Origin: a virus
Length of the DNA stretch: 64,000 bases
Virus record (IMG/VR): IMGVR_UViG_3300045988_062804
Strand: one strand, 5' to 3'
The notes beneath the pieces are model-generated. The model was given only the letters and a program-made list of their open reading frames with translations. It was not told the DNA's origin and did not search any database. This document shows positions 3,734 to 18,176 of this stretch, piece after piece; position 1 is the first letter of the stretch; each line of letters starts with the position of its first letter. A program made the translations under genes and the position numbers.

Positions 3734-3791
3734 GGCTTAGAAATAAGTGCTGTATTAGATTACTCGTTAGGATTTATAAAAGCAAAACACA

Positions 3792-4016
3792 ATGAGTAAT
3801 TTACCATTAGGAGCAGAGAATGACCCTTTTGCTCCGTACAACGTTCAAGAAGAGACGTTCAAATTTGACTTGGGTGTTAAAGGTATAGCATGGTATGAAT
3901 ACTATGGCTATTTAGACATTGATGAAGCTAAGGAGACTATTAAGCAACGTCTTACAGCAGCTTTATCGCAGCTTGGAGATATTGATATTAATGATGTAGA
4001 CATAGCTATATATTAA
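3792..4016 (+). CDS. hypothetical protein (74 aa)
   Basis: ORF with a TAATG junction to the polymerase gene. Confidence 0.6.
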   Translation: MSNLPLGAENDPFAPYNVQEETFKFDLGVKGIAWYEYYGYLDIDEAKETIKQRLTAALSQLGDIDINDVDIAIY

Positions 4017-6256: not shown

Positions 6257-6811
6257 ATGGAAGTTTTATCAAGAATTTGTACTAAATGTGGAAGGGAGTT
6301 ACCACTCGAATGCTTCAATAAGTGTTGCACTGGTAAGTACGGTAGACGTGCTATGTGTAGAGAGTGTGAACATAAGATGCAAAATACACCAGAGAGAAGA
6401 GCAAGACGAAGAGAATTGGAAAAACAAAGGAGAGAGAATCCTGAGTATGTAAAGGAGAGAAATATGAAAGATGCTGAAACAAGGCATACCAATATTGACT
6501 CAATTAAAAAAGCAATGGTAAGGGCTGCTAAGAAAAGAGCCTCTACTAAGGGATTAGAGTTTGACATTACATACGAAGATATTGAGCTTCCAAAAGTATG
6601 TCCTCTTCTTGGTATTACTTTAGGAGTCTCTCCTGGAAGGGCTTCTGATTCTTCATACTCCCTGGATAGGATAGATTCATCTAAGGGTTACATCAGAGGT
6701 AATATATGGGTTATCTCTAATAAAGCAAATGTTATTAAAAATAACGCTACCTTAGAAGAGTTAGAATTACTTACACAGAACCTTAAAATTAAATTAGATT
6801 CAATGAAATGA
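6257..6811 (+). CDS. HNH-family endonuclease with N-terminal Cys-rich zinc finger
   Basis: CTKCGRELPLECFNKCCTGKYGRRAMCRECEHK, then SLDRIDSSKGYIRGNIWVISNKANVIKNN. This matches the xLDRID..kGY..gN......N pattern seen in phage HNH endonucleases. Confidence 0.7.
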   Translation: MEVLSRICTKCGRELPLECFNKCCTGKYGRRAMCRECEHKMQNTPERRARRRELEKQRRENPEYVKERNMKDAETRHTNIDSIKKAMVRAAKKRASTKGLEFDITYEDIELPKVCPLLGITLGVSPGRASDSSYSLDRIDSSKGYIRGNIWVISNKANVIKNNATLEELELLTQNLKIKLDSMK

Positions 6812-6826
6812 CCATTGGATACATTA

Positions 6827-7354
6827 ATGCAGACTGAAATTGAAAGAAAGTTCCTAACTACTAACAGCTTGTTCAAAGAGCAGGCTGTTAGGGTTGTGGA
6901 CATACGTCAAGGATACATAGGGGTTACCGATAAGGGAGAAGCTAGAGTATCTATAAGGGATGAGAAGGCATGGATTATAGTCAAGTCCAATGAAAGACTA
7001 TCAAGATTGGAGTATGAAATTCCTATTCCTAAGAAGGATGCAGAGGAATTACTTACAAGAACCTGCGGTAGAGTTATTCATAAGACTCGTTATATTATTC
7101 CAGCAACATCTGGTATGTTGAAATGGGAAGTAGATGAGTTCCATGAAGAGGACGATGGGCTAATTATTGCCGAGATAGAGTTACCATCAGAGGGTACACA
7201 GTTTGATAAACCTCAATGGCTTGGTAAAGAAGTGACACAAGATAGTACTTATTATAACTCTACACTCTCTAAGACGCCTTGGAAAGCTATTCAGAAGTCA
7301 CGTGCTGAAGCTAAAGCCTGGGATGATTGGAGAGATTCATTAGTAAAGAAATGA
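6827..7354 (+). CDS. CYTH-domain protein (triphosphate tunnel metalloenzyme; CyaB/ThTPase-like)
   Basis: N-terminal EIERKFL (ExExK signature) and WEVDEFHEEDDGLIIAEIELPSE. I prefer the ATG at 6827 to the listed TTG at 6815. Confidence 0.8.
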   Translation: MQTEIERKFLTTNSLFKEQAVRVVDIRQGYIGVTDKGEARVSIRDEKAWIIVKSNERLSRLEYEIPIPKKDAEELLTRTCGRVIHKTRYIIPATSGMLKWEVDEFHEEDDGLIIAEIELPSEGTQFDKPQWLGKEVTQDSTYYNSTLSKTPWKAIQKSRAEAKAWDDWRDSLVKK

Positions 7355-7617
7355 AGTATAGGAAGAAACCAGTTATCATTGAAGCTATACAGTTTGAAGA
7401 CAATGCAGATTGTATATTAGCTATTCATGAGTTTATGGGGCAGGAAACTACAAGAGTCAACTATGAGGATAAAGACAATCCTTATATAAAGATTGAAACT
7501 CTTGAAGGTACTATGAAAGCCTCAGTCGGAGATTATATCATCAAAGGTGTGAACGGAGAGTTCTATCCTTGTAAGCCAGATATATTTGAGAAAACTTATG
7601 AGGAAGTTACTGAATGA
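7351..7617 (+). CDS. hypothetical protein (88 aa)
   Basis: ATG at 7351 forms an ATGA overlap with the CYTH stop; the listed start at 7327 is a TTG. The sequence KKPVIIEAIQF...GDYIIKG..GEFYPCKPDIFEKTYEEV looks like a common small phage protein family. Confidence 0.6.
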   Translation: MKYRKKPVIIEAIQFEDNADCILAIHEFMGQETTRVNYEDKDNPYIKIETLEGTMKASVGDYIIKGVNGEFYPCKPDIFEKTYEEVTE

Positions 7618-8477
7618 AGCTGATTAAACCATCATTTGAAATACTAGAACAAAAGCCTGGATTAGATGGGCTGTTACAACATATAGAAAGATGTGGTAGA
7701 ACCTGTTATAAGTCAGAAGACAAAATAACAGAAGAAAGTGCTCCTAAGTTTGTAGATATGTTAGTCAAACGTGGTCATACTGCAATGGTTGAGCATGGTA
7801 CTGTATATTTGAAGTATGATATTATTGAACATGGTTCTATGAACCTCCCAAATAAGTATCACTTCAATGAGTATTCTGTAGTAACTATCAATAATGAACC
7901 TCTTCATGGATATGAAATTCCAGAATATAGAGAGAAGTTCAACGGGCACACATATGCTTATATAACTACCAACTATAGAGTATTACTTCAGAATGACTGG
8001 CTGGACGACCTTAAATATCAATGTGAGCCTACAGAGCATCACGTTAAACGTGTTACTGTTAAGTTTGTATGTGATAGAGGAGTTAGTCATGAGTTTGTAA
8101 GGCATAGAGTATTCAGCTTTGCTCAAGAAAGCACTCGTTACTGTAACTATTCTAAGGACAAGTTTGGAAATGAATTGACTTTCATTGAGCCTTGTTGGGA
8201 TTGGGGTAGTGTAACTAGGGATGGGTTCGTTGCTTTCCAGACAGCTTTAGTTGAGGCAGAAAATATGTACCTTTACCTATTGCAGAATGGATGGAAACCT
8301 CAACAGGCTAGAGCTATACTTCCTAACAGCTTAAAGACCGAGTTAATTATGACTGGCACTATTAAACAATGGGAAGGGTTCTTCAAGTTGAGAGATGCTA
8401 AGGATGCTCACCCTCAAGCAAGAGAGTTGGCACAACCACTGCATGAAGAATTTATTAAGAGGGGCTATATAAAATGA
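7614..8477 (+). CDS. thyX: flavin-dependent thymidylate synthase ThyX
   Basis: ThyX signature RHRVFSFAQESTRY (RHRxxSxxxxSxR). ATGA overlap with the upstream gene. Confidence 0.95.
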   Translation: MKLIKPSFEILEQKPGLDGLLQHIERCGRTCYKSEDKITEESAPKFVDMLVKRGHTAMVEHGTVYLKYDIIEHGSMNLPNKYHFNEYSVVTINNEPLHGYEIPEYREKFNGHTYAYITTNYRVLLQNDWLDDLKYQCEPTEHHVKRVTVKFVCDRGVSHEFVRHRVFSFAQESTRYCNYSKDKFGNELTFIEPCWDWGSVTRDGFVAFQTALVEAENMYLYLLQNGWKPQQARAILPNSLKTELIMTGTIKQWEGFFKLRDAKDAHPQARELAQPLHEEFIKRGYIK

Positions 8478-8629
8478 TAGTAAGAGTGTTAGTAGAGTAC
8501 GTAGACCCTATGGATAATTCACTCCCACCTCAAATTTATATTAGGGAATGGAAAAGTGTAGAAGTTATTCCTATGGAATGGTACAAAATACTTTCTAATC
8601 CTCATGGATATAGGTACTATAGAATATGA
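8474..8629 (+). CDS. small hypothetical protein (51 aa, below ORF-track cutoff)
   Basis: Hand translation gives MIVRVLVEYVDPMDNSLPPQIYIREWKSVEVIPMEWYKILSNPHGYRYYRI. ATGA overlaps at both ends (thyX stop and UDG start). Confidence 0.5.
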   Translation: MIVRVLVEYVDPMDNSLPPQIYIREWKSVEVIPMEWYKILSNPHGYRYYRI

Positions 8630-9312
8630 CCGCAAATGAATACTTTGGTGACTGGATTGATGTTATTGACAAAGAGGAACTACGTAAAGTGGTAACTTGG
8701 GTTAATAAGGTCAATTCAGCTGACCTATGTCCTTCTCCTAAGAACATCTTTAGAGCATTTAGGGCTTGCTCATTTAAAGACTGTAAGGTAGTCTTTCTTG
8801 GGCAAGACCCTTACCCTCAAAGAGGAGTAGCTACTGGAATACTGTTTGGTAATTCAGAGGATACTTCTGAGGAGTATCTATCTCCTTCACTTAAAGTAGT
8901 TAAAGAGGCGGCTATTAATTATGAAATTCCCCATAACCTTATAGAGTTTGACAATACGTTAGAGTCTTGGGCTGAGCAGGGAATATTAATGATTAATACA
9001 GCCCTTACTTGTGAAGTAGGTAAAGTTGGAGCACACTTTGACATATGGAAACCCTTTATGTCTAAGTTAATTCACAACATGAGCTATAAAGACGGAGGTA
9101 TGATTTATGTTCTGTTTGGTAGTCAAGCTGAGTTATTCAAGAATGATATAGTAAACAGTCTGAAGACTATTGAGGTGTATCATCCAGCATATTATGCTAG
9201 GACTGGTAAGAAGATGCCTAGTAGTGTATTTACTGATATTAATCAGGCATTGAAGCAGCAATATAACTATCAAATAGAATTTTATAAGGAGACAGAATAT
9301 GGAACATGTTAA
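8626..9312 (+). CDS. ung: uracil-DNA glycosylase superfamily protein
   Basis: VVFLGQDPYP (motif A GQDPY) and VYHPAYY (motif B HPS-like). Confidence 0.85.
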   Translation: MTANEYFGDWIDVIDKEELRKVVTWVNKVNSADLCPSPKNIFRAFRACSFKDCKVVFLGQDPYPQRGVATGILFGNSEDTSEEYLSPSLKVVKEAAINYEIPHNLIEFDNTLESWAEQGILMINTALTCEVGKVGAHFDIWKPFMSKLIHNMSYKDGGMIYVLFGSQAELFKNDIVNSLKTIEVYHPAYYARTGKKMPSSVFTDINQALKQQYNYQIEFYKETEYGTC

Positions 9313-9505
9313 TAGAAAGTCGGTAAATGATAAGCTACGTAAGTATGACCATTTAGCTAAGGAAGATGACTTCATTGAAGTTACAGAATGGGCTAATGGT
9401 GAAGGTTGGGATGTTACTATAAATGATAGGGTAATCCCACTAACTCGTGGTGAATTAGATGCCATTGACTATCTGACTAAAGGTTTAGATTATGATACTA
9501 AATAA
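9299..9505 (+). CDS. hypothetical protein (68 aa)
   Basis: ORF overlapping the UDG gene end by 14 nt. Confidence 0.55.
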   Translation: MEHVNRKSVNDKLRKYDHLAKEDDFIEVTEWANGEGWDVTINDRVIPLTRGELDAIDYLTKGLDYDTK

Positions 9506-9516
9506 TAATTGAAAAG

Positions 9517-10167
9517 ATGAAAGAACAGAAGTTTGAATTTAGTGCTAAGAACACTTTCTTTACCTCTGACTCCCACTTTGGTCATGCTAACATTATAAAG
9601 TTATGCAATAGACCATTTAAGGATGTTGAGGAGATGAATGAAAAGTTGATTGAGAACTGGAATAAAGTAGTCCCAGAGGACGGTACAGTCTTCCACTTGG
9701 GAGATTTTGCCTTCGGTGGTAGTGGACTATGGAACAGTGTTATCCCTCGTCTGAATGGACAAATCTACTTGATTATAGGTAATCATGATAGAAAGAATCT
9801 AAGGCAAGGTTACATGGATAAGTTTGCAGATGTATTACCGCAGATGCAGATTCAAATAGAGAAGAGAAGTATCTACTTGAATCATTATCCATTCCTGTGT
9901 TATGGAGGTTCATATCGTAACGATGCTGATGCTGTATGGCAGTTATTCGGTCACGTTCATTCTGGTCCTATTAGTTCTGGATTGGATTGTGATAGGTTAG
10001 TTCATCTATTCCCATATCAGTATGATGTGGGTGTAGATAACAATAACTATACTCCAATCTCTTGGGAAGAAGTAAAGACAAAGATTCAGCGCCAAATAGA
10101 TGAAGGAGTAGAGAAATCTGTCAAGGAGCACACAATCCCTGACGAAGTGTATAAACTAAATGACTAA
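9517..10167 (+). CDS. calcineurin-like metallophosphoesterase
   Basis: Ordered MPP motifs: TSDSHFGH, LGDFAFGG, IGNHD, NHYP, GHVHSG. Confidence 0.85.
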   Translation: MKEQKFEFSAKNTFFTSDSHFGHANIIKLCNRPFKDVEEMNEKLIENWNKVVPEDGTVFHLGDFAFGGSGLWNSVIPRLNGQIYLIIGNHDRKNLRQGYMDKFADVLPQMQIQIEKRSIYLNHYPFLCYGGSYRNDADAVWQLFGHVHSGPISSGLDCDRLVHLFPYQYDVGVDNNNYTPISWEEVKTKIQRQIDEGVEKSVKEHTIPDEVYKLND

Positions 10168-10378
10168 AATATCTTTAGAAATCGACGGTAGGGTACTATC
10201 TATGGAGTTACCTTATAATGATGCAACAGCGGAAGAACTTATTAAGGGCTTTTGTACACTGATGCATGGTCAGACATTCCTTATCTGTACTATTAAGGAT
10301 TCTCTAAGAGAAGCTGCCCAAGATTATAAGGAGGACATAGAATTAGGTTATGAATCCAAACACTCTGAGGAAGATTAA
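10160..10378 (+). CDS. hypothetical protein (72 aa)
   Basis: ORF in the array, overlapping both neighbours. Confidence 0.55.
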   Translation: MTKISLEIDGRVLSMELPYNDATAEELIKGFCTLMHGQTFLICTIKDSLREAAQDYKEDIELGYESKHSEED

Positions 10379-10673
10379 AAGGCTAGAAGCTGGTGAGTCA
10401 TTTATCACCAGTGAGCCAGGTAACTCAATGCTTCCGTTATATAAAAGTAATGAGAAGCATTTGGTTACTCCTGTTAAGTGGGAAGATTGTAAGGTAGGTG
10501 ATGTAGTGTTCTGTAAGGTTAGAGGTTCATGTGTAACTCATAAGGTTTATGCAGTAGACAATGAGAAGGGTTGCTTAATAGGTAACAACAAAGGACACAT
10601 GAACGGCTGGACTAAGAATGTATACGGACTTGCTCATAAAATTGACCAATCATTAAAGACTAAGAAAGCTTGA
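10350..10673 (+). CDS. stand-alone S24/S26-like serine peptidase domain (LexA/UmuD/signal-peptidase fold)
   Basis: EPGNSMLPLY (GxSMxP nucleophile motif), VGDVVF, and a downstream THKVY lysine. There is no DNA-binding domain. Confidence 0.5.
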   Translation: MNPNTLRKIKRLEAGESFITSEPGNSMLPLYKSNEKHLVTPVKWEDCKVGDVVFCKVRGSCVTHKVYAVDNEKGCLIGNNKGHMNGWTKNVYGLAHKIDQSLKTKKA

Positions 10674-11365
10674 AAATATGTGTAACGTCTGACTTGCATG
10701 GTATTCTTCCTAAAATAGAAGAGCCTTGTGAGGTAGTATTGATATGTGGAGATATTATACCACTGCGTATGCAGAGGAACATCCCTCAGAGTGAAAAGTG
10801 GCTAAAGACCACATTCGCTGATTGGGTTAATAATCTCCCATGTGAATCAGTAATCATGGTGGGAGGTAATCATGACTTTGCCCTAGCTAATATGTATAGG
10901 CAACCTCTAAAGATTAGCTCAATATTGAGTAATCCTACTAATGGTAAACTTGAGTTATTAGATAATGAAGAAACATCCGTCATTAGTAAGGATGGTAAGA
11001 TATATAGTATATGGGGAACTCCATATTGTAAAATCTTTGGTAACTGGGCATATATGTATGAACCAGAGACATTGATTAAAGCATATGAATCTATGCCCCA
11101 GTATTGTGATATTGTTATATCTCACGATGCACCCAAATTGTGTGGGCTTGGTGTTATTCACCAAAGGTTTGACAGGGAGGATGCAGGTAATCCTTGGTTA
11201 GCTGATGAGATGCTTCGTAAACATCCTAGATATACATTCTGTGGACATATTCATAGTGGTGAGCATACACTGCAAACCTTTGATGATATGAAAATGGCTA
11301 ATGTGTCTTTAGTAGATGAAACTTACACTGAAACTTTTAAACCTTTATACCTCGATGTCGAATAA
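10670..11365 (+). CDS. calcineurin-like metallophosphoesterase (TTG start)
   Basis: MPP motifs: VTSDLHG, CGDIIP, GGNHD, SHDAP, GHIHSG. Motif I lies 5 codons after the TTG at 10670 (cTTGA overlap). No in-frame ATG precedes it, so the TTG start is required. Confidence 0.85.
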   Translation: MKICVTSDLHGILPKIEEPCEVVLICGDIIPLRMQRNIPQSEKWLKTTFADWVNNLPCESVIMVGGNHDFALANMYRQPLKISSILSNPTNGKLELLDNEETSVISKDGKIYSIWGTPYCKIFGNWAYMYEPETLIKAYESMPQYCDIVISHDAPKLCGLGVIHQRFDREDAGNPWLADEMLRKHPRYTFCGHIHSGEHTLQTFDDMKMANVSLVDETYTETFKPLYLDVE

Positions 11366-11564
11366 TAAAGTTGTAGTACAAGGAGGAGTTGGATTCCCTG
11401 GATTGTTGTTTATAGTACTGTTAGTTTGTAAACTATTTGGTGCTAACATAACATGGTTCTGGGTATTTGCTCCATTATGGATTCCTCTTGCATTAGTGGC
11501 AGGATTCTTCTTAGTATCAATTCTAATTGCAATATTTGTAGCATGGAAAAGAAAACTACTTTAG
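11355..11564 (+). CDS. small membrane protein (69 aa, two predicted TM helices)
   Basis: MSNNKVVVQGGVGFPGLLFIVLLVCKLF...WVFAPLWIPLALVAGFFLVSILIAIFVAW. I prefer the ATG at 11355 to 11316, which lies inside the upstream gene. Confidence 0.55.
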   Translation: MSNNKVVVQGGVGFPGLLFIVLLVCKLFGANITWFWVFAPLWIPLALVAGFFLVSILIAIFVAWKRKLL

Positions 11565-12124
11565 TAGTTGTGGACTTCCAGTATGACTTCTGTCTACTGG
11601 GAGCACCACTCTACGTTCCTGGGTCTGATAAGGCTCTGTGGAACATTTCTCATTTAATTGAGAATAAGAAAGTTGATAGAGTGATATTCACTGCTGATTG
11701 GCATCCAGCTAATCACTGTTCATTCAAAAGGAATGGTGGTAAATGGAATGACCATTGTATGCAGTTCTCTAAAGGAGCAGCTATACATGATTTGTTATTG
11801 TATGGTTGTATAGGTGCTAGTATACCCTATGAAGTACTCACTAAAGGGGCTTTACCCAGCTCTGAAGAATACGGAGTTAAGGTAGCTCCTGCTACTATAA
11901 AGGTTAACTATCATACTATCTATAGCCATTCTATGGGTATTGATGTTAACCCAGACGAGCAGGTGGTAGTATGTGGATTGGCAGGTGATTATTGTGTTCT
12001 TGAAACCTTAAAGAACCTAGAACCAATTAAGCCTATGTTATACCTGGATGGTGTAGCATCTCTGGATGGCGGTATGAAACTCAATGAGTATATTGAATCT
12101 AATAACATTATAATATGGTCATAG
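11543..12124 (+). CDS. pncA: nicotinamidase (isochorismatase family)
   Basis: VVVDFQYDF (catalytic Asp), ADWHPANHCSF (metal site) and GLAGDYCVLET (catalytic Cys). I chose the ATG at 11543 (MEKKTTLVVVDF). Confidence 0.9.
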   Translation: MEKKTTLVVVDFQYDFCLLGAPLYVPGSDKALWNISHLIENKKVDRVIFTADWHPANHCSFKRNGGKWNDHCMQFSKGAAIHDLLLYGCIGASIPYEVLTKGALPSSEEYGVKVAPATIKVNYHTIYSHSMGIDVNPDEQVVVCGLAGDYCVLETLKNLEPIKPMLYLDGVASLDGGMKLNEYIESNNIIIWS

Positions 12125-12351
12125 GATTACTTACAATATTGTTAGTACATCTAACTCTTACTTTCATAGGTATTCTTATGGGCAAGTACATACCTAATTT
12201 CGTTGACAAGAAAGATGAGAAGGACGTGGTTGCCTTCTTCTATTGGTGTATCTTTCCTCTATCAAATATAATGGTTATTCTGATAGGTATATCTTATCTA
12301 GTGGATAATAAAGTACACAAATTTTCTAAATATTTAATGAGATGGTTATAA
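12115..12351 (+). CDS. small membrane protein (78 aa, two predicted TM helices)
   Basis: Hydrophobic segments IGLLTILLVHLTLTFIGILMG and FFYWCIFPLSNIMVILIGISYLV. Overlaps both neighbours. Confidence 0.55.
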   Translation: MVIGLLTILLVHLTLTFIGILMGKYIPNFVDKKDEKDVVAFFYWCIFPLSNIMVILIGISYLVDNKVHKFSKYLMRWL

Positions 12352-13505
12352 AATCAATCCTTGATACGGACTTGTATAAGTTTACAACTTCGTATGCTTA
12401 CATGAAGCTGTTCCCTCATGCAATAGGGACGTTTGAGTTCTTTGATAGGGACAACACAGAGTACACAGAAGAGTTTGTACAACAACTACAAATGGAAATA
12501 TCCAACTTCTGTTCTCTAAAGTTAACTCACGATGAACAAGACTATATGACGACTCATTGTCGTTTCATTCCTCCAATGTATTGGGAATGGTTGAGTGGAA
12601 TTAGACTCAGTGCTGGTAAAGTACAGATATGGTTAGATGAAGATAAGCATCTCCATATCAAAGCTACTGACTACCTTTACAGAGTAACTCTGTATGAAGT
12701 GCCAATCTTAGCGATAGTATCTGAGCTTCGTAATAGAATGCTCAATCATACTATCAATATGACAGATGTTCTTATTAGACTAGAACCTAAGATAGTTCTT
12801 TCTAATCAGAATCAAATGTTCTTCTCTGAGTTTGGTACTCGTAGACGCTATTCATACAATGTTCAAGAAGCTATAGTAAAGAGTTTGAAAGATAGTGCAG
12901 TATATTGTACTGGTACTTCTAACTGTTACTTGGCAATGAAGTATGATATGTCTATGATTGGAACTCACCCACATGAATGGTTTATGTTCCACGGTGCTAT
13001 GTATGGCTATAAGCAAGCTAATTATATGGCATTGGAAGATTGGGTAAGTGTGTATGATGGTGACTTAGGTATTGCATTGAGTGATACTTATACTTCTGCT
13101 GTATTCTTCAGGAATCTGTCTCGTAAGCAAGCAAAGCTGTTTGATGGTGTGCGTCAGGATAGTGGTGATGAGTTTAAGTTTGTAACAAGTACTATTGCAC
13201 GTTATAAGGAACTTGGAATCGACCCTACTACTAAGACAATTATCTTTAGTAATGCTCTTACATTCGAGAAAGCTCTTGAAATCCGAGAATATTGTAGAGG
13301 ACGTATCCGTTGTGCATTTGGTATTGGAACTAATCTCACTAATGATACTGGACATAGACCTTCCAATATTGTTATGAAATTAACTTCCTGCCAGATGAAT
13401 AAGAATCAACCTGTATTTAACTGTGTTAAACTATCCGATGATTTGGGTAAGCATACTGGTCAGGAACAAGAAGTGGAACACTGTATGAGTGAGCTGGGAT
13501 TATGA
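12342..13505 (+). CDS. pncB: nicotinate phosphoribosyltransferase
   Basis: N-terminal SILDTDLYKFT and FSEFGTRRR, characteristic of NAPRTase. The size (387 aa) fits. Confidence 0.9.
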   Translation: MVIKSILDTDLYKFTTSYAYMKLFPHAIGTFEFFDRDNTEYTEEFVQQLQMEISNFCSLKLTHDEQDYMTTHCRFIPPMYWEWLSGIRLSAGKVQIWLDEDKHLHIKATDYLYRVTLYEVPILAIVSELRNRMLNHTINMTDVLIRLEPKIVLSNQNQMFFSEFGTRRRYSYNVQEAIVKSLKDSAVYCTGTSNCYLAMKYDMSMIGTHPHEWFMFHGAMYGYKQANYMALEDWVSVYDGDLGIALSDTYTSAVFFRNLSRKQAKLFDGVRQDSGDEFKFVTSTIARYKELGIDPTTKTIIFSNALTFEKALEIREYCRGRIRCAFGIGTNLTNDTGHRPSNIVMKLTSCQMNKNQPVFNCVKLSDDLGKHTGQEQEVEHCMSELGL

Positions 13506-13684
13506 AGTGGGAATATAATAAGGTTAGCTCATCATGTGAGCTAACTACTTCTAAGCTAAATGAATTAGGTAAAGAATCGTGGGAACTTGTATCAGTGATG
13601 CAAACCACTTCAGTTAAGTATATTGGCGGGGTTCGTATTGATACTACATCAATGGTTTATTACTTTAAAAGACCAATAGAATGA
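13502..13684 (+). CDS. DUF4177-like small protein
   Basis: MKWEYNKV...LNELGKESWELVSV...YYFKRP pattern. ATGA overlaps on both sides. Confidence 0.5.
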   Translation: MKWEYNKVSSSCELTTSKLNELGKESWELVSVMQTTSVKYIGGVRIDTTSMVYYFKRPIE

Positions 13685-14532
13685 GAGAATTAAATTATGA
13701 AAGGGTATTCAATGTTCTCGTCAAAGAGACATCGAATTATATTACTAGGAATCGTCTTAATGCTATGGTTCTTGGGATTAGTGGTGGTATTGATTCAACT
13801 GTAGTGGCAGCTATCTGCCATGAAGTGAGTAAGCAAACTGGCATTCCTCTAGTAGGAAGAAGTCTTCCCATTAAGAATAAGGAAGATGAGTTTGATGTGT
13901 CTAAGCTAGTTGGAGAGGCTTTCTGCAGTGATTTTAAGATTATAAATTTAAGTTTAATAACTAAGAGTTTAGTTGTGGAGCTTAAGGCAGAAGAATGTGC
14001 AGAATTAACTCCTATTGCAAAAGGTAATATTCAGGCTAGGCTTAGAATGATGTATCTATATAACCTTGCTTCAATCCATAAAGGGCTAGTAATGAGTACA
14101 GATAATCAAACTGAATACCAACTTGGATTCTGGACTATTCATGGTGATGTAGGCGATTTCGACCCAATTCAGGGATTGTGGAAGACTGAGGTCTATGGGT
14201 TAGCTGAATGGCTTAAGGACTTCTATTTTACAGATGGGGACGATGTTCATAAGGCTGTAGCTATTAAAGAGTCTATGTCTCTTACTCCTACTGATGGTCT
14301 GGGTATTAGTAGCAGTGATTTAGAACAGATTGGTGCTAAGAGTTATTATGATGTAGACAGAGTATTACAAACTGTTACTTGTAAGGCTTCTCCTGAGAAT
14401 GACAAATTACAGGACGAACTAACGGCTGAACTTGGTCCAGATGTCGTGGGCAAAATCATGCAACGTCGTTTTAATTCTAGATTCAAGAGGTTACTTAGTC
14501 CTATCATAGTACCTAGAGAACTGTATGATTGA
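13681..14532 (+). CDS. nadE: NH3-dependent NAD+ synthetase
   Basis: PP-loop LGISGGIDSTVVA. At 283 aa it has no glutaminase domain. Confidence 0.9.
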   Translation: MRELNYERVFNVLVKETSNYITRNRLNAMVLGISGGIDSTVVAAICHEVSKQTGIPLVGRSLPIKNKEDEFDVSKLVGEAFCSDFKIINLSLITKSLVVELKAEECAELTPIAKGNIQARLRMMYLYNLASIHKGLVMSTDNQTEYQLGFWTIHGDVGDFDPIQGLWKTEVYGLAEWLKDFYFTDGDDVHKAVAIKESMSLTPTDGLGISSSDLEQIGAKSYYDVDRVLQTVTCKASPENDKLQDELTAELGPDVVGKIMQRRFNSRFKRLLSPIIVPRELYD

Positions 14533-14644
14533 CTTCTTAGAGCTAATCCTAGAATTAGTAAATGTTAAATCGTGTAATGAGCTAGTGGCTCTGCTTGTTA
14601 TGGGCGGAGTACTAGCCATTATCTATTATTTGTTTCTTGTATGA
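14525..14644 (+). CDS. tiny membrane protein (39 aa, below ORF-track cutoff)
   Basis: Hand translation gives MIDFLELILELVNVKSCNELVALLVMGGVLAIIYYLFLV. It overlaps the nadE stop and forms an ATGA junction with the next ORF, filling the apparent gap. Confidence 0.4.
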   Translation: MIDFLELILELVNVKSCNELVALLVMGGVLAIIYYLFLV

Positions 14645-14889
14645 AATTATATTATTTATTCTTATTGGTAATGTTCCTCCTCTTTAATAGTTGTGTGGAA
14701 CAGACTCCGAGAACTAAGTCAACTATCCCTATATCAGTTAGGGATACTACTAAGAGGGCAAGTAGGAACCATTTGTGGAACTCTAATACATCAACCTATA
14801 AGAAGACTAAATCCTCATACACTCCGTCTAAGAAAACGTACAAGAGGAAATCTTCTTACAAATCAAGAAGTAGGAGGCATAGGAGATGA
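14641..14889 (+). CDS. predicted lipoprotein / secreted protein with a very basic S/T/K/R/Y-rich tail
   Basis: MKLYYLFLLVMFLLFNSC has a signal peptide ending in Cys. The tail is KKTKSSYTPSKKTYKRKSSYKSRSRRHRR. Confidence 0.5.
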   Translation: MKLYYLFLLVMFLLFNSCVEQTPRTKSTIPISVRDTTKRASRNHLWNSNTSTYKKTKSSYTPSKKTYKRKSSYKSRSRRHRR

Positions 14890-15446
14890 TAGGAGTATTC
14901 TTTGGGTCTTTTGACCCACCCCATATTGGTCATGTTAATATAGTCACAGCTGCACTTAATTCTGGTATTGTTGACAAGGTTATAGTAGTTCCAGCATATA
15001 AGAGTGTATGGAAGAACACCGAAACTAAGTGGGAGTATAGACTCACTATGGCTAAGGAAACCTTTGATAACATTCCTGGAGTAGTTGTGGATGGTATTGA
15101 GTATCGTATCGCTAATGGAGAACCATTACCCACTTATAAGACTATTGAAGCATTAAAAGAGATTTATGGTGAGTTTACTATCGTAACATCTGCTGAGACT
15201 TATAAGGAGATTCCAAGATGGCAGCATGGTGATGAGATACTAAAGGGCAATAAGTTCTTAGTAGTAGATGTAGCACACTTTAATAGTGAGGATATTCCAC
15301 ATGATAAAGTGAAAGTTATCTATGCTCCCGATATTACAATATGCTCTACCGCTATCAGAAAGTGGGTTGATAATGGCAGAATTATAATACCATTTGTAAC
15401 AGATGAAGTAAATTCAATAATTAGAAAACTTGGGCTATACAAATGA
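14886..15446 (+). CDS. nadD: nicotinate-nucleotide (NaMN/NMN) adenylyltransferase
   Basis: GVFFGSFDPPHIGH (GxFxPxHxGH) and C-terminal ICSTAIRKW (ISSTxIR). Confidence 0.9.
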   Translation: MIGVFFGSFDPPHIGHVNIVTAALNSGIVDKVIVVPAYKSVWKNTETKWEYRLTMAKETFDNIPGVVVDGIEYRIANGEPLPTYKTIEALKEIYGEFTIVTSAETYKEIPRWQHGDEILKGNKFLVVDVAHFNSEDIPHDKVKVIYAPDITICSTAIRKWVDNGRIIIPFVTDEVNSIIRKLGLYK

Positions 15447-15976
15447 GTCAAATCTATGTTTCGGGTCCTTGGTCTTTTGCTTCTGGAGTACTGCAAGTAG
15501 TTAAGAGCATAAAGACCCAATCTAAGGGAGATAAGGTAGTTTATAGTGAGAAAGGAACTGAGTATCAGTTCTCTAAACTAGAACAATCCGATTATGTCGT
15601 ATTCGTGTTAGATGGATTTGCATGGCAGCAGAGATTAGAAAGTATTTCTAAGGGAATGCTCTCAGAACTTATATGGTGTATCAATCATAGAGTTCCAATG
15701 TTCTTAGCTTACAAATCAGCTGATGGATTAGGCATATATGCAACTGAAATAGATGACAATTTAACCTTTAAGGGAATTGCAGGTACTGCCAACACCTTCT
15801 ATCAGATTATAAACAATCAGTTTGGGACTATTGTAGCTCCAAATGATACTTCTGGATTTGTTCTGAGTTATCAAGACGCGGATTTAGGAAGCGATTGTGT
15901 ATATCTGAAGGGAGAGTGGATAGCTGACCCATTAGATTTCCTTAATGTTGAACAACCAAAGAGTTACTTTTATTAA
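15443..15976 (+). CDS. nucleoside 2-deoxyribosyltransferase-like / DUF4406-like Rossmannoid protein
   Basis: N-terminal IYVSGPWS (cf. hYhAGP) and SDYVVFVLDGFAW...SKGMLSELIWCINHRVPMFL (cf. D.G...E.G.A.a.gkPv). Matched by eye only. Confidence 0.45.
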   Translation: MSQIYVSGPWSFASGVLQVVKSIKTQSKGDKVVYSEKGTEYQFSKLEQSDYVVFVLDGFAWQQRLESISKGMLSELIWCINHRVPMFLAYKSADGLGIYATEIDDNLTFKGIAGTANTFYQIINNQFGTIVAPNDTSGFVLSYQDADLGSDCVYLKGEWIADPLDFLNVEQPKSYFY

Positions 15977-15977
15977 T

Positions 15978-16520
15978 ATGAAGAACTTTCCTTTATTAGA
16001 CGAGAATGGTAAGGAATGGTGGATTAGCCGTTCTATTGCTGTAACAGGATGTATATTTACATTCCTAAATGGTAAGTGGTGTGTACTAGCCAATAAGAGA
16101 GGTGAAGGTACTCCCGACTTCCAGGGAATGTGGAATATGCCATGTGGTTACTTAGACTTTGATGAAACTACAGCACAAGCTGTGGTTAGAGAGGTCTACG
16201 AAGAGACTGGTGTTAAGGTAAATCCAGAGTACTTACACTTCTGGAAGTTCAATGACTCTCCAACTCAGAATAGGCAGAATGTATCATTCAGATACTATGC
16301 TCTAGTTGATGCACAGCCAGGTAATATCAGTGTAGGTACTGGTAATGACAGAGGTGGTGAAGAAGACGAGGTAGAAGCTATTGGATGGATTCCAGTAGAC
16401 TCTATTGATAAATATCAGTGGGCATTTGGTCACGATGAAATCATTAAGGAGTTTACTGAGTGGATGCACTTAGAGGATGGAGATTTGGATATGCAAGACA
16501 TAGACTTAGACCCAGTATGA
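15978..16520 (+). CDS. Nudix hydrolase
   Basis: Nudix box GYLDFDETTAQAVVREVYEETGV. I prefer the ATG at 15978, just after the upstream stop; 15945 is an alternative. Confidence 0.9.
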   Translation: MKNFPLLDENGKEWWISRSIAVTGCIFTFLNGKWCVLANKRGEGTPDFQGMWNMPCGYLDFDETTAQAVVREVYEETGVKVNPEYLHFWKFNDSPTQNRQNVSFRYYALVDAQPGNISVGTGNDRGGEEDEVEAIGWIPVDSIDKYQWAFGHDEIIKEFTEWMHLEDGDLDMQDIDLDPV

Positions 16521-16897
16521 TATACTTTATAAGTGGACATAGAGACTTAACATGGGAGGAGTTTGCCAAATGGTATGCTCCTGCCATTAGTAGGACTCTT
16601 AGCACAGACAATGGAGCAATATTCGTAGTGGCAGAATGTGATGGTGCTGATAGAATGGCTCAAGATTATTTGCTAGCTTGTGGTGTTCCTCCAAAGAACA
16701 TCAATGTTTATCATATGCTAAAAGCACCTAGATATTTAGCTAATAACAATATACCTACTATAGGTGGATTTACATCTGACCTGCAGCGGGATGAGGCTAT
16801 GACTAAAAACTCCGACTACGACGTTGCCTTTATTCGTAAGGGTAAGGAGTCGTCTGGAACTGCCCAAAACATTCTAAGAAGATGGACAAAGGTATAA
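16517..16897 (+). CDS. SLOG-fold protein (DUF2493 / YpsA-like)
   Basis: MIYFISGHRD, VVAECDGADRMAQDYLLACGV and QRDEAM...DVAFIRKGKESSGTAQNILR follow the GGRD / G.GAD / RN..M...GT pattern of DUF2493. ATGA overlap with the Nudix gene. Confidence 0.45.
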   Translation: MIYFISGHRDLTWEEFAKWYAPAISRTLSTDNGAIFVVAECDGADRMAQDYLLACGVPPKNINVYHMLKAPRYLANNNIPTIGGFTSDLQRDEAMTKNSDYDVAFIRKGKESSGTAQNILRRWTKV

Positions 16898-16904
16898 GGT
16901 GATT

Positions 16905-17090
16905 ATGAACTTGACATGGCTATAAATTTCTAGTAAAGCTAACGCTGATGAGAAAGAAAGGTTTGAAAGGCTCAGATTACACTTTACTAGTCTGTTCCTA
17001 CAACACCCAAAGATGCTCGAAGTCCTGTCTTATAAGGATATAGTACTGAAAGCCAAAGAATTTACTAAAGAATATCTAAAGCATGAATAA
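16905..17090 (+). pseudogene. 61-codon frame interrupted by an in-frame TAA (16923-16925); a possible decayed small gene, or a 25-aa ORF starting at 17013
   Basis: ATG AAC TTG ACA TGG CTA TAA is followed by 54 sense codons (ISSKANADEKERFERLRLHFTSLFLQHPKMLEVLSYKDIVLKAKEFTKEYLKHE). The frame ends overlapping the next ATG. Confidence 0.3.
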
Positions 17091-17592
17091 GTTTATATTC
17101 CTAGACATAGATGGGGTTATGAATAGTAATCTCTTCTATTCAGAAAGAACTCAGGATAAGAGATATGATGAGTGGATTAAAGAGCATCCTCAACACATAG
17201 CTTGGGGTGCTTGCAATATTGACCCAAGAGCAGTAGAAAGGCTGAATAGAATTACTGATGCTACTGGGGCTAAGATTGTTGTATCTTCTACCTGGAGGAG
17301 TGATAGTAATTTGCAAGAAGTGTTTAACCTTGTTGGAATTAAAGAGCCAATACATGACATAACTCCTTTTATGAGGAGTAGACATAGAGGTTCTGAAATC
17401 CAGGAATGGTTAGATAAGCAAACTGAACCTTATCGGTATATAATCTTAGACGATGATACTGATATGTTGGATTGGCAACTACCTTATTTCATTCAATCTG
17501 ATTGGCTGAAATGGGGTTTGAGTGATGAGGATGTTGAACAAGCAATACATATTCTAAATGATACCAATACAGCCGCTAAGGCACATCTATAA
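17083..17592 (+). CDS. HAD-superfamily phosphatase (HAD_SAK-like)
   Basis: FIFLDIDGVMNS (DxDG motif I), VVSSTWR (motif II) and ILDDD. Confidence 0.7.
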   Translation: MNKFIFLDIDGVMNSNLFYSERTQDKRYDEWIKEHPQHIAWGACNIDPRAVERLNRITDATGAKIVVSSTWRSDSNLQEVFNLVGIKEPIHDITPFMRSRHRGSEIQEWLDKQTEPYRYIILDDDTDMLDWQLPYFIQSDWLKWGLSDEDVEQAIHILNDTNTAAKAHL

Positions 17593-17743
17593 TGACCCTT
17601 CATTAGATAGAGAACTTCTATTGAGGAAACTAACATCTCTTAGACTAAAGGATATGATTAGTATTGAAGAATATGAGTATTTAAAACATTTAATAAGAAA
17701 GGAGAACGAGAATGCTCAGAGAGCAAATAGATGCACTTATTAA
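17558..17743 (+). CDS. hypothetical protein (61 aa); doubtful
   Basis: The ORF overlaps both neighbours by more than 30 nt. No motif recognised. Confidence 0.3.
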   Translation: MIPIQPLRHIYNDPSLDRELLLRKLTSLRLKDMISIEEYEYLKHLIRKENENAQRANRCTY

Positions 17744-18176
17744 GCAATCTATGCTTGATAAGAATGTAAAGAGGACAGAGGTACTAAGAGCTATTAAGAA
17801 TGAGTTCTTAGTGTATCAAACTGCTAAGGGTGCTAAACCTTTAGATGATGCAGCCGAGTTTACTATTCTTCGTAAGATGGTAAAACAGAGATTAGATAGT
17901 AGAGACCAATACATTGCAGCTGGAAGGAAAGACTTAGCCGATAATGAATCCAAAGAGATTCTTGTGCTTGAGTCTTTCCTTCCGAGTGAAGCCTCAGGTG
18001 AGGAAATTACTAATGCAATCTATGAGGTTATCTCAGAGAAGGGTTGGGGTGACGGAGAGACAGGTCCCCAAATCCCGAAGAAGTGCATGGGAGAGGCTGT
18101 TAAGTTGGTCAAGGCAAAGCTTGCTAATGTAGATGGTAAATTGTTAGCTGACACAATTAAGACTTATCTCGTATGA
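17712..18176 (+). CDS. GatB/YqeY-domain protein
   Basis: Collinear resemblance to B. subtilis YqeY: VLRAIKNE, KQRLDSRDQYIAAGRKDLA, EILVLESFLP, VDGKLL. Confidence 0.75.
   Translation: MLREQIDALIKQSMLDKNVKRTEVLRAIKNEFLVYQTAKGAKPLDDAAEFTILRKMVKQRLDSRDQYIAAGRKDLADNESKEILVLESFLPSEASGEEITNAIYEVISEKGWGDGETGPQIPKKCMGEAVKLVKAKLANVDGKLLADTIKTYLV

Follow-up and report, generated by a model that had tools for sequence, protein, structure and literature searches.

The window, by which we mean the whole stretch of 64,000 nucleotides that was analysed, derives from a gut phage of ~185 kb and carries three plus-strand ORFs directly 3' of nadD (15443–16897), as an earlier sequence-only reading had noted. They are called here ORF A, ORF B (Nudix) and ORF C; the block to which they belong lies 3' of UDG and metallophosphatase genes (Table 1). 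The TGA stop of nadD (15444–15446) overlaps the ATG of ORF A at 15443 (ATGA), the TAA of ORF A (15974–15976) is separated by a spacer of 1 nt from the Nudix ATG at 15978 (TAA-N-ATG) and the Nudix TGA (16518–16520) overlaps the ATG of ORF C at 16517, again as ATGA. Two starts were revised with respect to the mechanical ORF list, from 15945 to 15978 (MKNFP...) for Nudix and from a GTG at 16460 to 16517 (MIYFISGHRD...) for ORF C; both choices are backed by the N-termini of homologues and by gene calls. All three are real genes, each under purifying selection, with pairwise dN/dS values within the clade of 0.051 for Nudix (the lowest of any gene of the block), 0.097 for the N-terminal domain of ORF A and 0.16 for ORF C.

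Table 1. Features of the NAD gene block and its downstream neighbours (positions are those of the window)
Feature	Position	Strand	Support
pncA-like isochorismatase	11531-12124	+	Pfam
pncB NAPRTase	12342-13505	+	Pfam (PF04095/PF17767)
nadE NAD synthase	13681-14532	+	Pfam
nadD (nicotinate-nucleotide adenylyltransferase)	14886..15446	+	PF01467 1.3e-12; TIGR00482 2e-25
ORF A N-terminal domain, residues 1-125, NDT/TIR-class Rossmannoid	15443..15817	+	
ORF A linker, residues 126-162, indel-rich, hypervariable, predicted disordered	15818..15928	+	
ORF A C-terminal peptide ...DPLDFLNVEQPKSYFY-COOH and stop codon	15929..15976	+	
ORF B, Nudix hydrolase, 180 aa	15978..16520	+	PF00293 6.5e-17
ORF C, stand-alone SLOG-fold protein, 126 aa	16517..16897	+	AF2, Foldseek, phrog_289 5.5e-8
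Small conserved ORF between ORF C and HAD, frameshifted in the window	16883..17089	+	
HAD_SAK_2 phosphatase-like gene	17083-17592	+	PF18143 1.2e-26
YqeY	17712-18176	+	PF09424 7.7e-30

The three ORFs had been proposed to form one coupled trio. Their junctions agree with this, but they do not make up one fixed module, since ORF C is missing from 6 of the 30 related clade loci and sister phages possess nadD-Nudix without ORF A. The order nadD-ORF A-Nudix is found in 28 of the 30 clade loci and also outside the clade (L001, L051, L120, L130, L135, L136, L137 and L138); it is present in about nine divergent lineages and recurs down to ~30% identity. Relatives that are 31–43% identical retain a TAA-N-ATG or TAATG arrangement where the ORF A-like gene meets Nudix, and Nudix itself is intact in every one of the 30 clade loci, never being deleted. 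Synteny of the upstream pncA, pncB and nadE genes is kept in relatives. Natural variants without these three genes still carry ORF A and Nudix, which argues that the pair is independent of the phage's own Preiss–Handler enzymes. The co-occurrence with NAD genes that the same reading had expected is strong for ORF A and Nudix, whereas ORF C is also found in other phages without NAD genes. Since nadD-ORF A-Nudix recurs across lineages and ORF C is patchy, the conserved unit is the triad of nadD, ORF A and Nudix, whose genes abut tightly and whose conservation runs deep, with ORF C as a looser and more mobile companion. Downstream of ORF C, HAD_SAK_2 and YqeY are constant neighbours in two clades. 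The block displays extensive natural deletion polymorphism among the clade loci, a population-genetic resource that reveals which genes are dispensable.

ORF B had been described as a canonical Nudix-box protein, and this holds: the box can be read directly as G57-x5-E63-x7-R71-E72-V73-x-E75-E76-x-G78-V79 (encoded at 16146–16214), it conforms to GX5EX7REUXEEXGU including the REx2EE glutamates, and PF00293 is matched with 62.2 bits (cut-off 21.1). In profile searches of the PDB, the top matches by bits were MutT-like proteins or NudJ and covered the box region only; MutT, NudJ and NudI are among the highest-bit NCBIfam and PDB matches. The only full-length alignments were to the NrtR-type structures 2fml and 3gz8/3gz5 and included their C-terminal AFDH motif, which appears as WAFGHD near the C-terminus of ORF B; the NadM-Nudix protein 2qjt was matched as well. 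The similarity to these ADPR-type Nudix domains is weak (E-values of 1e-6 to 1e-8). The C-terminal tail of ORF B is acidic. ADPR-diphosphatase Nudix proteins have an X-loop proline ~16–17 residues downstream of the box (Dunn et al. 1999, summarised in PMC5389931). Pro95 of ORF B lies 16 residues past V79 and is kept in five of six diverse homologues, with a shift of one residue in the sixth. Taken as weak indicators, Pro95 and the full-length similarity would place ORF B in the ADP-ribose diphosphatase subgroup, with ADP-ribose as the predicted substrate. ORF B is thus, as judged from its motifs and alignments, a predicted Nudix hydrolase of the NrtR/NadM-like ADP-ribose group with an intact catalytic motif. 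The possibility of a NudC-type NADH diphosphatase was also considered and rejected (SQPWPFPxS motif absent; NF001299 20.7 bits, cut-off 158).

For ORF A, 97 homologues were found in databases. Its motifs (IYVSGP at residues 4–9, D57-G58, S74-E75 and R83-V84-P85) had suggested a protein like NDT or DUF4406. The motifs are present and the class, NDT/TIR/SLOG Rossmannoid with a leaning towards NDT, was borne out, but neither the NDT model nor DUF4406 was matched. Searches with ORF A against Pfam, PHROG and NCBIfam matched no model and a profile search of the PDB came back empty; among 113 relatives, there were 9 sub-threshold matches to PF05014 (Nuc_deoxyrib_tr), the best with E = 0.0028, and 1 match to PF15891. 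Its failure to match the NDT Pfam model sets ORF A apart from ordinary NDTs. The AF2 model is of middling confidence (mean pLDDT 64.5; ~70–84 in the N-terminal domain, <50 in the linker). With this model, a Foldseek search of the PDB gave nothing at E < 1e-3; the NDT 7o62_D was recovered with a probability of 0.99 (TMt 0.52, rmsd 3.2 Å over 98 columns) at an E-value of only 0.04, and matches to formyltransferase domains (the top ones), flavodoxin and the ThsB TIR are comparable or stronger. The top 19 matches in BFVD include five viral proteins with an N-deoxyribosyltransferase annotation (E of 1.8e-3 to 0.07). ORF A founds a family for which there is no existing model, in the NDT/TIR/SLOG Rossmannoid class and most like nucleoside deoxyribosyltransferases.

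Glu75 of ORF A (15665–15667), in the helix after strand 3, is the sole invariant column in the 113 relatives; G71 is nearly invariant. In hhalign, Glu75 falls on the Glu of the DNPH1 GYELG motif (probability 68.5, E = 4.6e-5; DNPH1 sequence entered by hand) and, with low probability and in the same register, on Glu98 of the NDT GMELG motif (NDT sequence likewise entered by hand). It appears that Glu75 corresponds to the catalytic Glu of the G-x-x-x-E-L element of NDT/DrHyd enzymes. The C-terminal part of the protein is of two kinds. The linker has a dN/dS of 0.46 and is variable in length and poorly conserved in the alignment of relatives. The C-terminal peptide has a dN/dS of 0.028 at a dS of 0.70, is kept in every deletion chimera and ends in FY-COOH in relatives down to ~28% identity. 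In NDT/PDT, a C-terminal Tyr (Tyr157/Tyr167), to which the FY-COOH end of ORF A is analogous, acts in trans and completes with its carboxylate or its ring the active site of the neighbouring subunit. Among the more distant representatives of ORF A, 92 of 112 end otherwise, mostly in D-x-R-L-L-L-hydrophobic, and those with this latter ending lie on contigs without visible NAD genes. Given this replacement of FY-COOH in distant relatives, the tail may be a docking peptide instead of a catalytic element.

For ORF C (motifs G7-H8-R9-D10, D42-G43-A44-D45 and S112-S113-G114-T115), AF2 gave a model with a pLDDT of 95.6 and a pTM of 0.88. Foldseek matched this model to the LOG structures 5its, 5zbl and 7w2i (TMq 0.65–0.67, probability 0.95–1.0) and also to YpsA 2nx2 (TMq 0.38, below LOG), ShosA 8zva and TRPM MHR domains, and we are confident that the modelled fold is that of SLOG. 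The proposal of a DUF2493-type SLOG protein survives as far as the fold is concerned, but the DUF2493/YAcAr model was not reached: against PF10686, the window protein has no match at E ≤ 1 and 4 of 77 relatives match, the best with E = 0.02. LOG phosphoribohydrolases are characterized by the motif PGGxGTxxE with its catalytic Glu. ORF C was rejected as such an enzyme in a motif-level comparison, as it reads S113-G114-T115-A116-Q117-N118, with a nearly invariant Asn at the position of the Glu. The YpsA clade of SLOG has a GxD/E substrate-binding signature (PMC6459960). G43-x-D45 of ORF C, at the junction of strand 2 and helix 2, is invariant and is likened to the YpsA signature (G53/E55) by motif only; other invariant charged residues are R9, D88, D92 and D102. 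The family has 166 database homologues, is phage-specific and is common among large phages of the gut, including Lak megaphages; a 70%-identical homologue in NCBI nr was labelled 'SLOG cluster4 family protein' by its depositor. In relatives, ORF C has as neighbours NADAR, which overlaps the start of ORF C, a Tad3-domain protein (directly adjoining ORF C in L107, L110 and L114), SIR2 and KptA. In a group of jumbo phages of 200–400 kb, ORF C divergently adjoins a block that includes KptA (PF01885, 6.8e-30) and a cytidylyltransferase-like gene.

The best reading of the trio is an adjunct to phage NAD+ reconstitution that processes ADP-ribose or N-glycosides. With about even confidence, we propose that the three are co-transcribed, translationally coupled 3' accessory genes of the pncA-pncB-nadE-nadD cluster and take care of what the breakdown of NAD+ yields besides nicotinamide. 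Host NADases, TIR and SIR2 among them, would release nicotinamide and ADP-ribose from NAD+; PncA, PncB, NadD and NadE would regenerate NAD+ from the nicotinamide, and the Nudix enzyme would convert ADP-ribose to AMP and ribose-5-phosphate, so that ADPR is removed and a PRPP precursor supplied. ORF A, by Glu chemistry of the NDT/DNPH1 type, would cleave or exchange an N-glycosidic base, its substrate being a phosphoribosyl nucleotide of the pathway (AMP, NMN/NaMN or an ADPR-derived N-glycoside), and ORF C may bind or process an ADPR-derived nucleotide. A bolder version, which we regard as an improbable long shot, is that ORF A represents a new enzyme family combining NDT-like covalent ribosyl-Glu chemistry with a tethered C-terminal Tyr. 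It would act on ADPR-derived N-glycosides (signals of the cADPR/N7-cADPR type or NAD breakdown products), cleaving the base or swapping it for nicotinate/nicotinamide, and would constitute with NadD and the ADPR Nudix an undescribed step of Preiss–Handler-based NAD+ reconstitution, in a pathway that also erases immune signals. Going solely by gene neighbourhood (Tad3, NADAR and SIR2 beside ORF C in relatives), the trio may destroy or sequester Thoeris-type signals. In its general form, this immune-signal idea had already been put forward by Iyer et al. 2022 (PMC9503650).

Sequestration could also be the whole function: ORF C would be a non-catalytic binder of cADPR-type Thoeris signals or a blocker of host TIR/SIR2 NADases, perhaps joined in this by ORF A by way of its tail, and Nudix would be left as the sole enzyme. 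We think this unlikely. It would fit the SGTAQN sequence of ORF C without the LOG catalytic Glu, the use of SLOG domains as cADPR sensors in ThsA (PMC9503650 and other literature), the Tad3-domain protein adjoining ORF C in the three loci mentioned and the presence/absence polymorphism of the region, which is typical for anti-defence islands. The fast-evolving disordered linker of ORF A ending in a constrained aromatic peptide is also in its favour, the mode of action of Tad3-7 being the entry of flexible loops into NADase active sites. However, no likeness in sequence or fold links the trio to Tad1, Tad2, Tad3, Acb or RyDEP (among the Tad families, only Tad3 was specifically searched). None of the three ORFs had a Pfam match to Tad families including Tad3 (PF25185), and tblastn with the proteins of L110 and L107 detected no Tad3 homologue over the full length of the window, Tad3 being confined to sister-clade loci. 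Furthermore, the invariant charged residues R9, D45, D88, D92 and D102 of ORF C fit catalysis, and the invariant Glu75 and the NDT-like motifs of ORF A speak for an enzyme.

Housekeeping of RNA-repair and NAD by-products, in which ORF C would work with HAD_SAK_2 and YqeY and, together with Nudix, clear ADPR-derived by-products of NAD-dependent RNA/DNA transactions (KptA/Tpt1, sirtuin, ligase) and not immune products, is in our view quite unlikely. The unit ORF C-HAD_SAK_2-YqeY is constant in two clades even without NAD genes (L107 and L108), the HAD_SAK_2 family was defined from RNA-repair proteins, a KptA block adjoins ORF C in the jumbo phages described above and Iyer et al. (PMC9503650) tie SLOG, NADAR and Macro domains to by-products of RNA repair. 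Yet the annotated block (8.6–18.4 kb) contains no gene for an RNA ligase, a kinase-phosphatase or KptA, and a tblastn search of the whole window with the L004 KptA found nothing. In addition, clade loci can lose ORF C together with the N-terminus of HAD and keep the remainder, and the linkage of Nudix to nadD indicates NAD metabolism itself. A role in general nucleotide-pool metabolism for DNA replication, with ORF A as an ordinary deoxyribosyltransferase or dNMP N-hydrolase and ORF B as a MutT-like sanitiser that are near NAD genes only since the region is one of nucleotide metabolism, is very unlikely: the upstream UDG and metallophosphatase genes, ThyX and UDG upstream in L001, a dNMP kinase downstream in L138, the high-bit MutT, NudJ and NudI matches of ORF B and the frequency of NDT-family enzymes among phage nucleotide-salvage genes (BFVD matches) would suit it, but ORF A keeps its precise place between nadD and Nudix, overlapping codons included, in relatives of ~30% identity while the surroundings vary, the full-length alignment of ORF B is limited to NrtR/NadM-type ADPR Nudix domains and the NDT Pfam model is not matched by ORF A.

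The depletion of NAD+ and signalling by ADPR-derived molecules rank with the most common means by which bacteria resist phages. Three phage routes of NAD+ reconstitution (NARP1-3) and several signal sponges and cleavers have been characterized experimentally. To these, the locus adds a concrete candidate, an NDT-like family so far without annotation that is held in place between NadD and an ADPR-type Nudix in Preiss–Handler clusters of abundant human-gut phages and is accompanied by a phage-specific SLOG family that neighbours Tad3, NADAR and SIR2 in relatives. The trio looks like extra equipment for surviving NAD-destroying bacterial defences. Should ADPR-derived molecules be their substrates, the enzymes would define hitherto unknown accessory steps by which viruses rebuild NAD+ or remove signals in gut phages of the Bacteroidota type, a group in which, to our knowledge, such a system has never been put to the test; should the trio turn out to consist of ordinary enzymes of nucleotide salvage, the finding would be a routine one.

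Among known systems, the gut 'NAD-jumbo phages' (PMC11662467) share the pncB-nadD-nadE clusters in gut phages. In the passages of that article that were searched, Nudix has no occurrence (0) and neither the NDT-like gene nor SLOG companions are mentioned, and the source phage of the window, at ~185 kb, is under the 200 kb jumbo cut-off. ORF C resembles the viral YpsA-like SLOG proteins of the survey by Iyer, Burroughs, Anantharaman and Aravind 2022 (PMC9503650) in being small, stand-alone and enriched in large phages, in having NADAR, Nudix and NAD-salvage genes as neighbours and in its invariant GxD. It differs in missing the Pfam YAcAr/DUF2493 model and in the 'SLOG cluster4' label of its homologue, and its adjacency to a Tad3-domain protein and SIR2 was not found in the passages of that survey that were consulted. 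With NDT/DNPH1 (DrHyd superfamily), ORF A shares a predicted Rossmannoid fold, the IY-x-x-G/C-P motif of strand 1, the G-x-x-x-E-L element whose invariant Glu aligns to the catalytic one and a C-terminal Tyr-COOH, whereas it stays below the PF05014 and PF15891 thresholds, carries, ahead of its C-terminus, a long linker that is disordered and hypervariable, and has nadD and Nudix as obligatory neighbours. RyDEP, a phage glycosidase with a RyR domain, cleaves 2'/3'cADPR and feeds NAD+ synthesis (PMC13232231). The likeness is in concept only (a phage enzyme destroying ADPR-based signals whose product is channelled to NAD+ restoration, as the sequence-only reading had proposed); the fold of the trio is unrelated, and there is no similarity in sequence or structure. 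The locus was considered as a NARP2 system (NadV + NatV) and rejected, the block having no NadV-type annotation, a pncB that encodes an NAPRTase and separate NadD and Nudix. The likeness to NadM-Nudix and KVP40 NatV (NARP2, Osterman et al.) is that an NAD adenylyltransferase is genetically joined to an ADPR-type Nudix in a setting of phage NAD+ re-synthesis. Here, however, nadD and Nudix are separate genes, whereas NadM/NatV are fused, the adenylyltransferase is of the NadD type (TIGR00482) and not of the NadM type, the pathway is Preiss–Handler (pncA, pncB, nadE) instead of NadV-based, and the NDT-like ORF A is an additional gene that separates nadD from Nudix.

An uninterrupted run of genes on the + strand leads from the pncA-like gene through ORF A (NDT-like), ORF B (Nudix) and ORF C (SLOG-fold), together referred to as the trio, to YqeY (see the table below). 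The close coupling described in the sequence-only reading was confirmed: nadD and ORF A overlap in an ATGA, as do ORFs B and C, and 1 nt separates ORF A from the Nudix gene; the quoted sequence motifs were all found in the trio ORFs. Longer versions from a mechanical ORF list, with ORF B starting at 15945 and ORF C at a GTG at 16460, were rejected since homologues start with MKNFP... and MIYFISGHRD..., respectively, and independent gene calls concur. GC content and skew are uniform over the region and gave no sign that the trio was recently acquired by horizontal transfer; scans for sigma-70 promoters and terminators were uninformative, as they gave no more matches than expected from shuffled sequence.

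Features of the NAD cluster (window coordinates unless a related locus is named); dN/dS values are pairwise NG86 estimates from ~25 non-identical sequences of the window's close relatives (the clade), and intact genes were counted over 28-30 non-redundant loci
Feature	Position	Strand	dN/dS	Intact loci
pncA-like isochorismatase	11531-12124	+		22/28
78-aa predicted membrane ORF (pncA/pncB interval)	12115-12351			
pncB NAPRTase	12342-13505	+		22/28
60-aa ORF (pncB/nadE interval)	13502-13684			
nadE NAD synthase	13681-14532	+		23/28
82-aa ORF (nadE/nadD interval)	14641-14889			
nadD (dN/dS for comparison)	14886-15446	+	0.119	28/30
ATGA, nadD stop/ORF A start	15443-15446			
ORF A, whole	15443-15976	+	0.133	28/30
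ORF A, N-domain	residues 1-125		0.097	
ORF A, linker	residues 126-162		0.46	
ORF A, C-terminus	residues 163-177		0.028	
TAA, ORF A stop	15974-15976			
ATG, ORF B start	15978			
ORF B (Nudix)	15978-16520	+	0.051	30/30
ORF B, acidic tail (residues 164-180)	16467-16517			
ATGA, ORF B stop/ORF C start	16517-16520			
ORF C (SLOG-fold)	16517-16897	+	0.158	24/30
Small conserved ORF (~55-70 aa)	16883-17089			
HAD_SAK_2 gene	17083-17592	+		
YqeY	17712-18176	+		
Deletion hot spot, pncA-to-HAD block	11531-17592			
L138, NADAR and dNMP kinase (DNMK) genes	3751-4251, 7456-8160			
L110, extra NAD-conflict genes	6391-11190			
L107, extra NAD-conflict genes	8454-11200			
L108, extra NAD-conflict genes	8116-10396			
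L109, KTSC-SLOG fusion	9662-10387			

Several small ORFs occupy the intervals. Several relatives, locus L138 among them, retain the 60-aa ORF at 34-67% identity. The 82-aa ORF, also on the + strand, combines a lipoprotein-like signal (…LLFNSC) with a Lys/Arg/Ser-rich, very basic tail; some relatives retain it at 36-92% identity, and in L027 it is joined in frame to nadD. Downstream, relatives' copies of the small conserved ORF start with MD[KE]V within the 3' end of ORF C and end overlapping the HAD start. The window copy shows frameshifts or stops (MDKGIR and a stop, then ...DYELDMAINF and two stops), so that it represents either a pseudogene or a sequencing error.

The association with NAD genes was examined among relatives of ORF A that share its C-terminal Phe-Tyr end (FY-COOH). 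The proposed co-occurrence held for nadD-ORF A-Nudix, an order present in all FY-COOH relatives with enough flanking sequence and joined by overlaps or 1-nt spacing, but ORF C proved not to be obligate. Beyond the clade, this arrangement recurs in L001, L051, L120, L130 and L135, where ORF A is 45% identical (L001), 50% (L120), 48% (L130) and 33% (L135); L137 (43%) has nadD upstream, and L136 (31%) has the Nudix gene downstream and an upstream fragment without assigned identity. In L138 (33%) the NAD cluster further contains an inserted NADAR gene, located between pncB and nadE, and YqeY is followed by a dNMP kinase gene. ORF C follows the Nudix gene in the clade, L120 and L135; it is gone or truncated in 6 of 30 clade loci and absent from L001, L136 and L138, which makes it a frequent companion rather than an obligate member. 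The recurrence pattern thus identifies nadD-A-Nudix as the deeply conserved unit.

Natural deletions provide a second view of the locus. The pncA-to-HAD block (loci L007-L035) is a hot spot with many independent microhomology events, several of which yield in-frame chimeric ORFs (e.g. pncA::nadD, pncA::nadE, nadD::ORF A and ORF A::YqeY). The protein database contains 15 or more chimeras whose microhomologies span 2-4 residues, among them PncA-N::ORF A-C, NadD-N::ORF A-C, NadE-N::ORF A-C, ORF A-N::YqeY-C, NadD::ORF C and PncB-N::ORF A. Such proteins, including P0231 (pncB N-terminus plus ORF A) and ~15 other chimeras, might be taken for Rosetta-stone fusions; they are in-frame microhomology deletions from the same clade. 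Five of ~9 deletions in genome loci are in frame against one-third expected by chance, which is not clearly above chance, and we make no claim of frame-preserving selection. The Nudix gene and YqeY were never lost in the clade, the former also being under the strongest constraint in the block. We infer that the phage can do without its NAD-synthesis genes and ORF C under some conditions, which fits accessory or anti-defence cargo. ORF A and the Nudix gene are retained after loss of the phage's own Preiss-Handler enzymes (pncA, pncB, nadE), which suggests a role for them beyond supplying that pathway.

ORF A had been likened to nucleoside deoxyribosyltransferases or DUF4406. Neither single-sequence nor profile searches (Pfam, PHROGs, NCBIfam, PADLOC, PDB) gave a usable family assignment; one PDB sequence match to a quinone oxidoreductase (9kuj, E = 0.0078) was discarded as a generic Rossmann match. 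When 1.84 billion representatives were searched exhaustively with a profile, 239 relatives were recovered. In an alignment of 113 of them Glu75 is the sole invariant residue, and Y5, Y41, G71, Y90, Y99 and G111 are near-invariant. The AlphaFold2 (AF2) model is of middling confidence (overall pLDDT 64.5; ~70-84 over the first ~110 residues, ~61-64 for residues 111-130), with a predicted beta-alpha Rossmannoid domain in the N-terminal part and predicted disorder at residues 128-177. Foldseek against PDB returned nothing below E = 1e-3; the matches were formyltransferase N-domains, flavodoxins, the ThsB TIR domain and one NDT (7o62_D; probability 0.99, TMt 0.52, 3.2 Å rmsd over 98 columns). Against viral models, 5 of the top 19 matches are annotated as N-deoxyribosyltransferase. 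Nine of the 113 relatives have sub-threshold Nuc_deoxyrib_tr matches, and single ones match Nuc_deoxyri_tr2, TIR_2, STALD or DUF1937; neither ORF A nor its relatives match DUF4406 in Pfam. Glu75 lies in the helix after strand 3, where, according to Iyer et al. (PMC9503650), the TIR/DrHyd/SLOG class has its active-site residues. In hhalign comparisons with DNPH1 and L. leichmannii NDT it falls on the catalytic Glu of either enzyme, which we treat as a lead and not as a stringent test. In our view ORF A founds a new family within the TIR/DrHyd/SLOG class, nearest to NDT/DrHyd: the evidence leans towards the suggested NDT-like class, but formal NDT membership and DUF4406 do not stand.

The tail of ORF A evolves quite differently from its indel-rich linker. 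The last residues (...EQPKSYFY) could have been kept merely as the translation-initiation region of the Nudix gene; however, synonymous changes are present (dS 0.70) with the peptide unchanged, which indicates constraint on the peptide and not only on initiation. FY-COOH is kept in relatives down to ~28% identity. In NDT/PDT enzymes the neighbouring subunit helps to build the active site with the carboxylate and ring of its C-terminal Tyr (PMC4270796, PMC7831932), and by analogy the conserved end would fit an NDT-like enzyme; a partner-docking peptide is equally possible. The end differs in 92 of 112 more distant representatives. In distant relatives (P0246-P0359) FY-COOH is replaced by D-x-R-L-L-L-hydrophobic, which is also the commonest of the differing ends, and some of these proteins have long unannotated C-terminal extensions of up to 428 aa.

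ORF B is, as had been proposed, a canonical Nudix protein (PF00293, 62 bits, every catalytic glutamate present). Single-sequence and profile searches of PDB gave many Nudix matches across the box region, with the NadM-Nudix enzyme 2qjt among the top ones; NrtR-type proteins (2fml, 3gz8/3gz5) alone align from residue ~20 to ~163, taking in the C-terminal AFDH motif, which is WAFGHD in ORF B. P95 lies 16 residues past the Nudix box, a position at which Dunn et al. (PMC5389931) tied the X-loop proline to ADP-ribose diphosphatases; the NADH-specific motif was not found in ORF B. From these sequence features we infer that ADP-ribose (ADPR) is its probable substrate. The protein ends in a strongly acidic tail, HLEDGDLDMQDIDLDPV, which varies in length or is missing among relatives.

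For ORF C, the SLOG fold suggested by the sequence-only reading was recovered but DUF2493 membership was not. PF10686 (YAcAr, formerly DUF2493) does not match the window protein and matches 4 of 77 relatives at E ≥ 0.02; the only sequence match was phrog_289. The AF2 model built with 77 homologues (pLDDT 95.6) matches LOG phosphoribohydrolases in PDB (Foldseek TMq 0.65-0.67, probability up to 1.0), and further YpsA, the DprA-like ShosA and TRPM MHR domains. On its predicted structure, ORF C is a member of the SLOG superfamily; the depositor of a GenBank homologue (70% identity) named it 'SLOG cluster4 family protein'. Invariant residues include G7, R9, G43, D45, D88, D92, D102 and S113-G114-T115. 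At the Glu position of the LOG GTxxE motif, ORF C has Asn, a comparison made at motif level. G43-x-D45 resembles the GxD/E substrate signature of the YpsA clade (PMC6459960). KTSC is fused N-terminally to ORF C-type SLOG in some large phages (L109; protein P0210).

All homologues in a 5.8-billion-protein collection (97 for ORF A, 166 for ORF C) are metagenomic; IMG/VR single-protein scans with database proteins P0220 and P0228 gave no matches. Among 185,579 species genomes ORF C was found on just four MAG contigs, probably mis-binned phage. There are thus no evident cellular homologues at that search sensitivity, and ORF C appears essentially phage-specific. The lengths of the homologue-bearing contigs cluster at 181-189 kb, probably the size of the phage genome. 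Among GenBank phages nothing closely related to the locus was found, the sole matches being 77-80% identical over 6-11% of the query. ORF C homologues at 52% identity in Prevotella Lak megaphages point to a Bacteroidota-type gut host. In the Lak-like loci L100, L111 and L113, ORFs near the SLOG gene are heavily broken up when read in the standard code, which fits reports of alternative stop-codon usage in Lak megaphages.

As to function, we give roughly even chances to the trio being an ADPR- and N-glycoside-processing adjunct to NAD+ reconstitution. ORF B would cleave ADPR, ORF A would act on a pathway nucleotide as an NDT/DNPH1-like N-glycosidase or transglycosylase, and ORF C may bind or process an ADPR derivative. 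ORF C neighbourhoods are variable, yet repeatedly NAD- or ADPR-related. In the clade, ORF C lies between the Nudix gene and HAD_SAK_2 plus YqeY. In the sister phages L110 and L114, which have no ORF A and in which Nudix directly follows nadD, SIR2, one ORF and ORF C precede a Tad3-domain protein (PF25185, 4.9e-34). Non-catalytic sequestration or inhibition of TIR/SIR2 immunity by the trio is a reading that we consider unlikely. A NADAR gene overlaps the ORF C start in L108, and in 200-400 kb jumbo phages the neighbouring divergent block includes KptA and a cytidylyltransferase-like gene. That the trio, with HAD_SAK_2 and YqeY, clears by-products of NAD-dependent RNA repair is improbable in our estimate. 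We think it very unlikely that the trio consists of ordinary nucleotide-pool enzymes. For distant relatives of ORF A outside the FY group, four contexts were obtained; all lie on phage-like contigs and show no recognisable NAD gene, and a PRPP-synthetase-like gene lies near one and a MazG-like gene near another.

Sister-clade phages of 145-176 kb (L107, L108, L110) have extra NAD-conflict genes on the same backbone: an AAA_28 kinase encoded upstream of nadD, a sirtuin (SIR2), an R2K ATP-grasp protein, a NADAR protein whose gene overlaps the start of the SLOG gene, and the Tad3-domain (Thoeris inhibitor) protein directly 3' of the SLOG gene.

In the portions of the literature covered by our search, we found no description of the family of ORF A or of its constant place between NadD and Nudix, of its tripartite architecture, or of the adjacency of the SLOG family of ORF C to Tad3 and SIR2. 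Phage NAD+ reconstitution via NARP1, NARP2 and NARP3 has been published, as have Preiss-Handler clusters in gut jumbo phages (PMC11662467). Joint processing of ADPR-derived immune molecules by viral SLOG, Nudix, NADAR and Macro domains was predicted in PMC9503650, and RyDEP destroys cADPR signals and at the same time fuels NAD+ synthesis (PMC13232231). We read the nadD and Nudix genes of the window as an analogue of the NadM-Nudix/NatV pairing, but not a split version of it, because the adenylyltransferase here is of the NadD type (TIGR00482).
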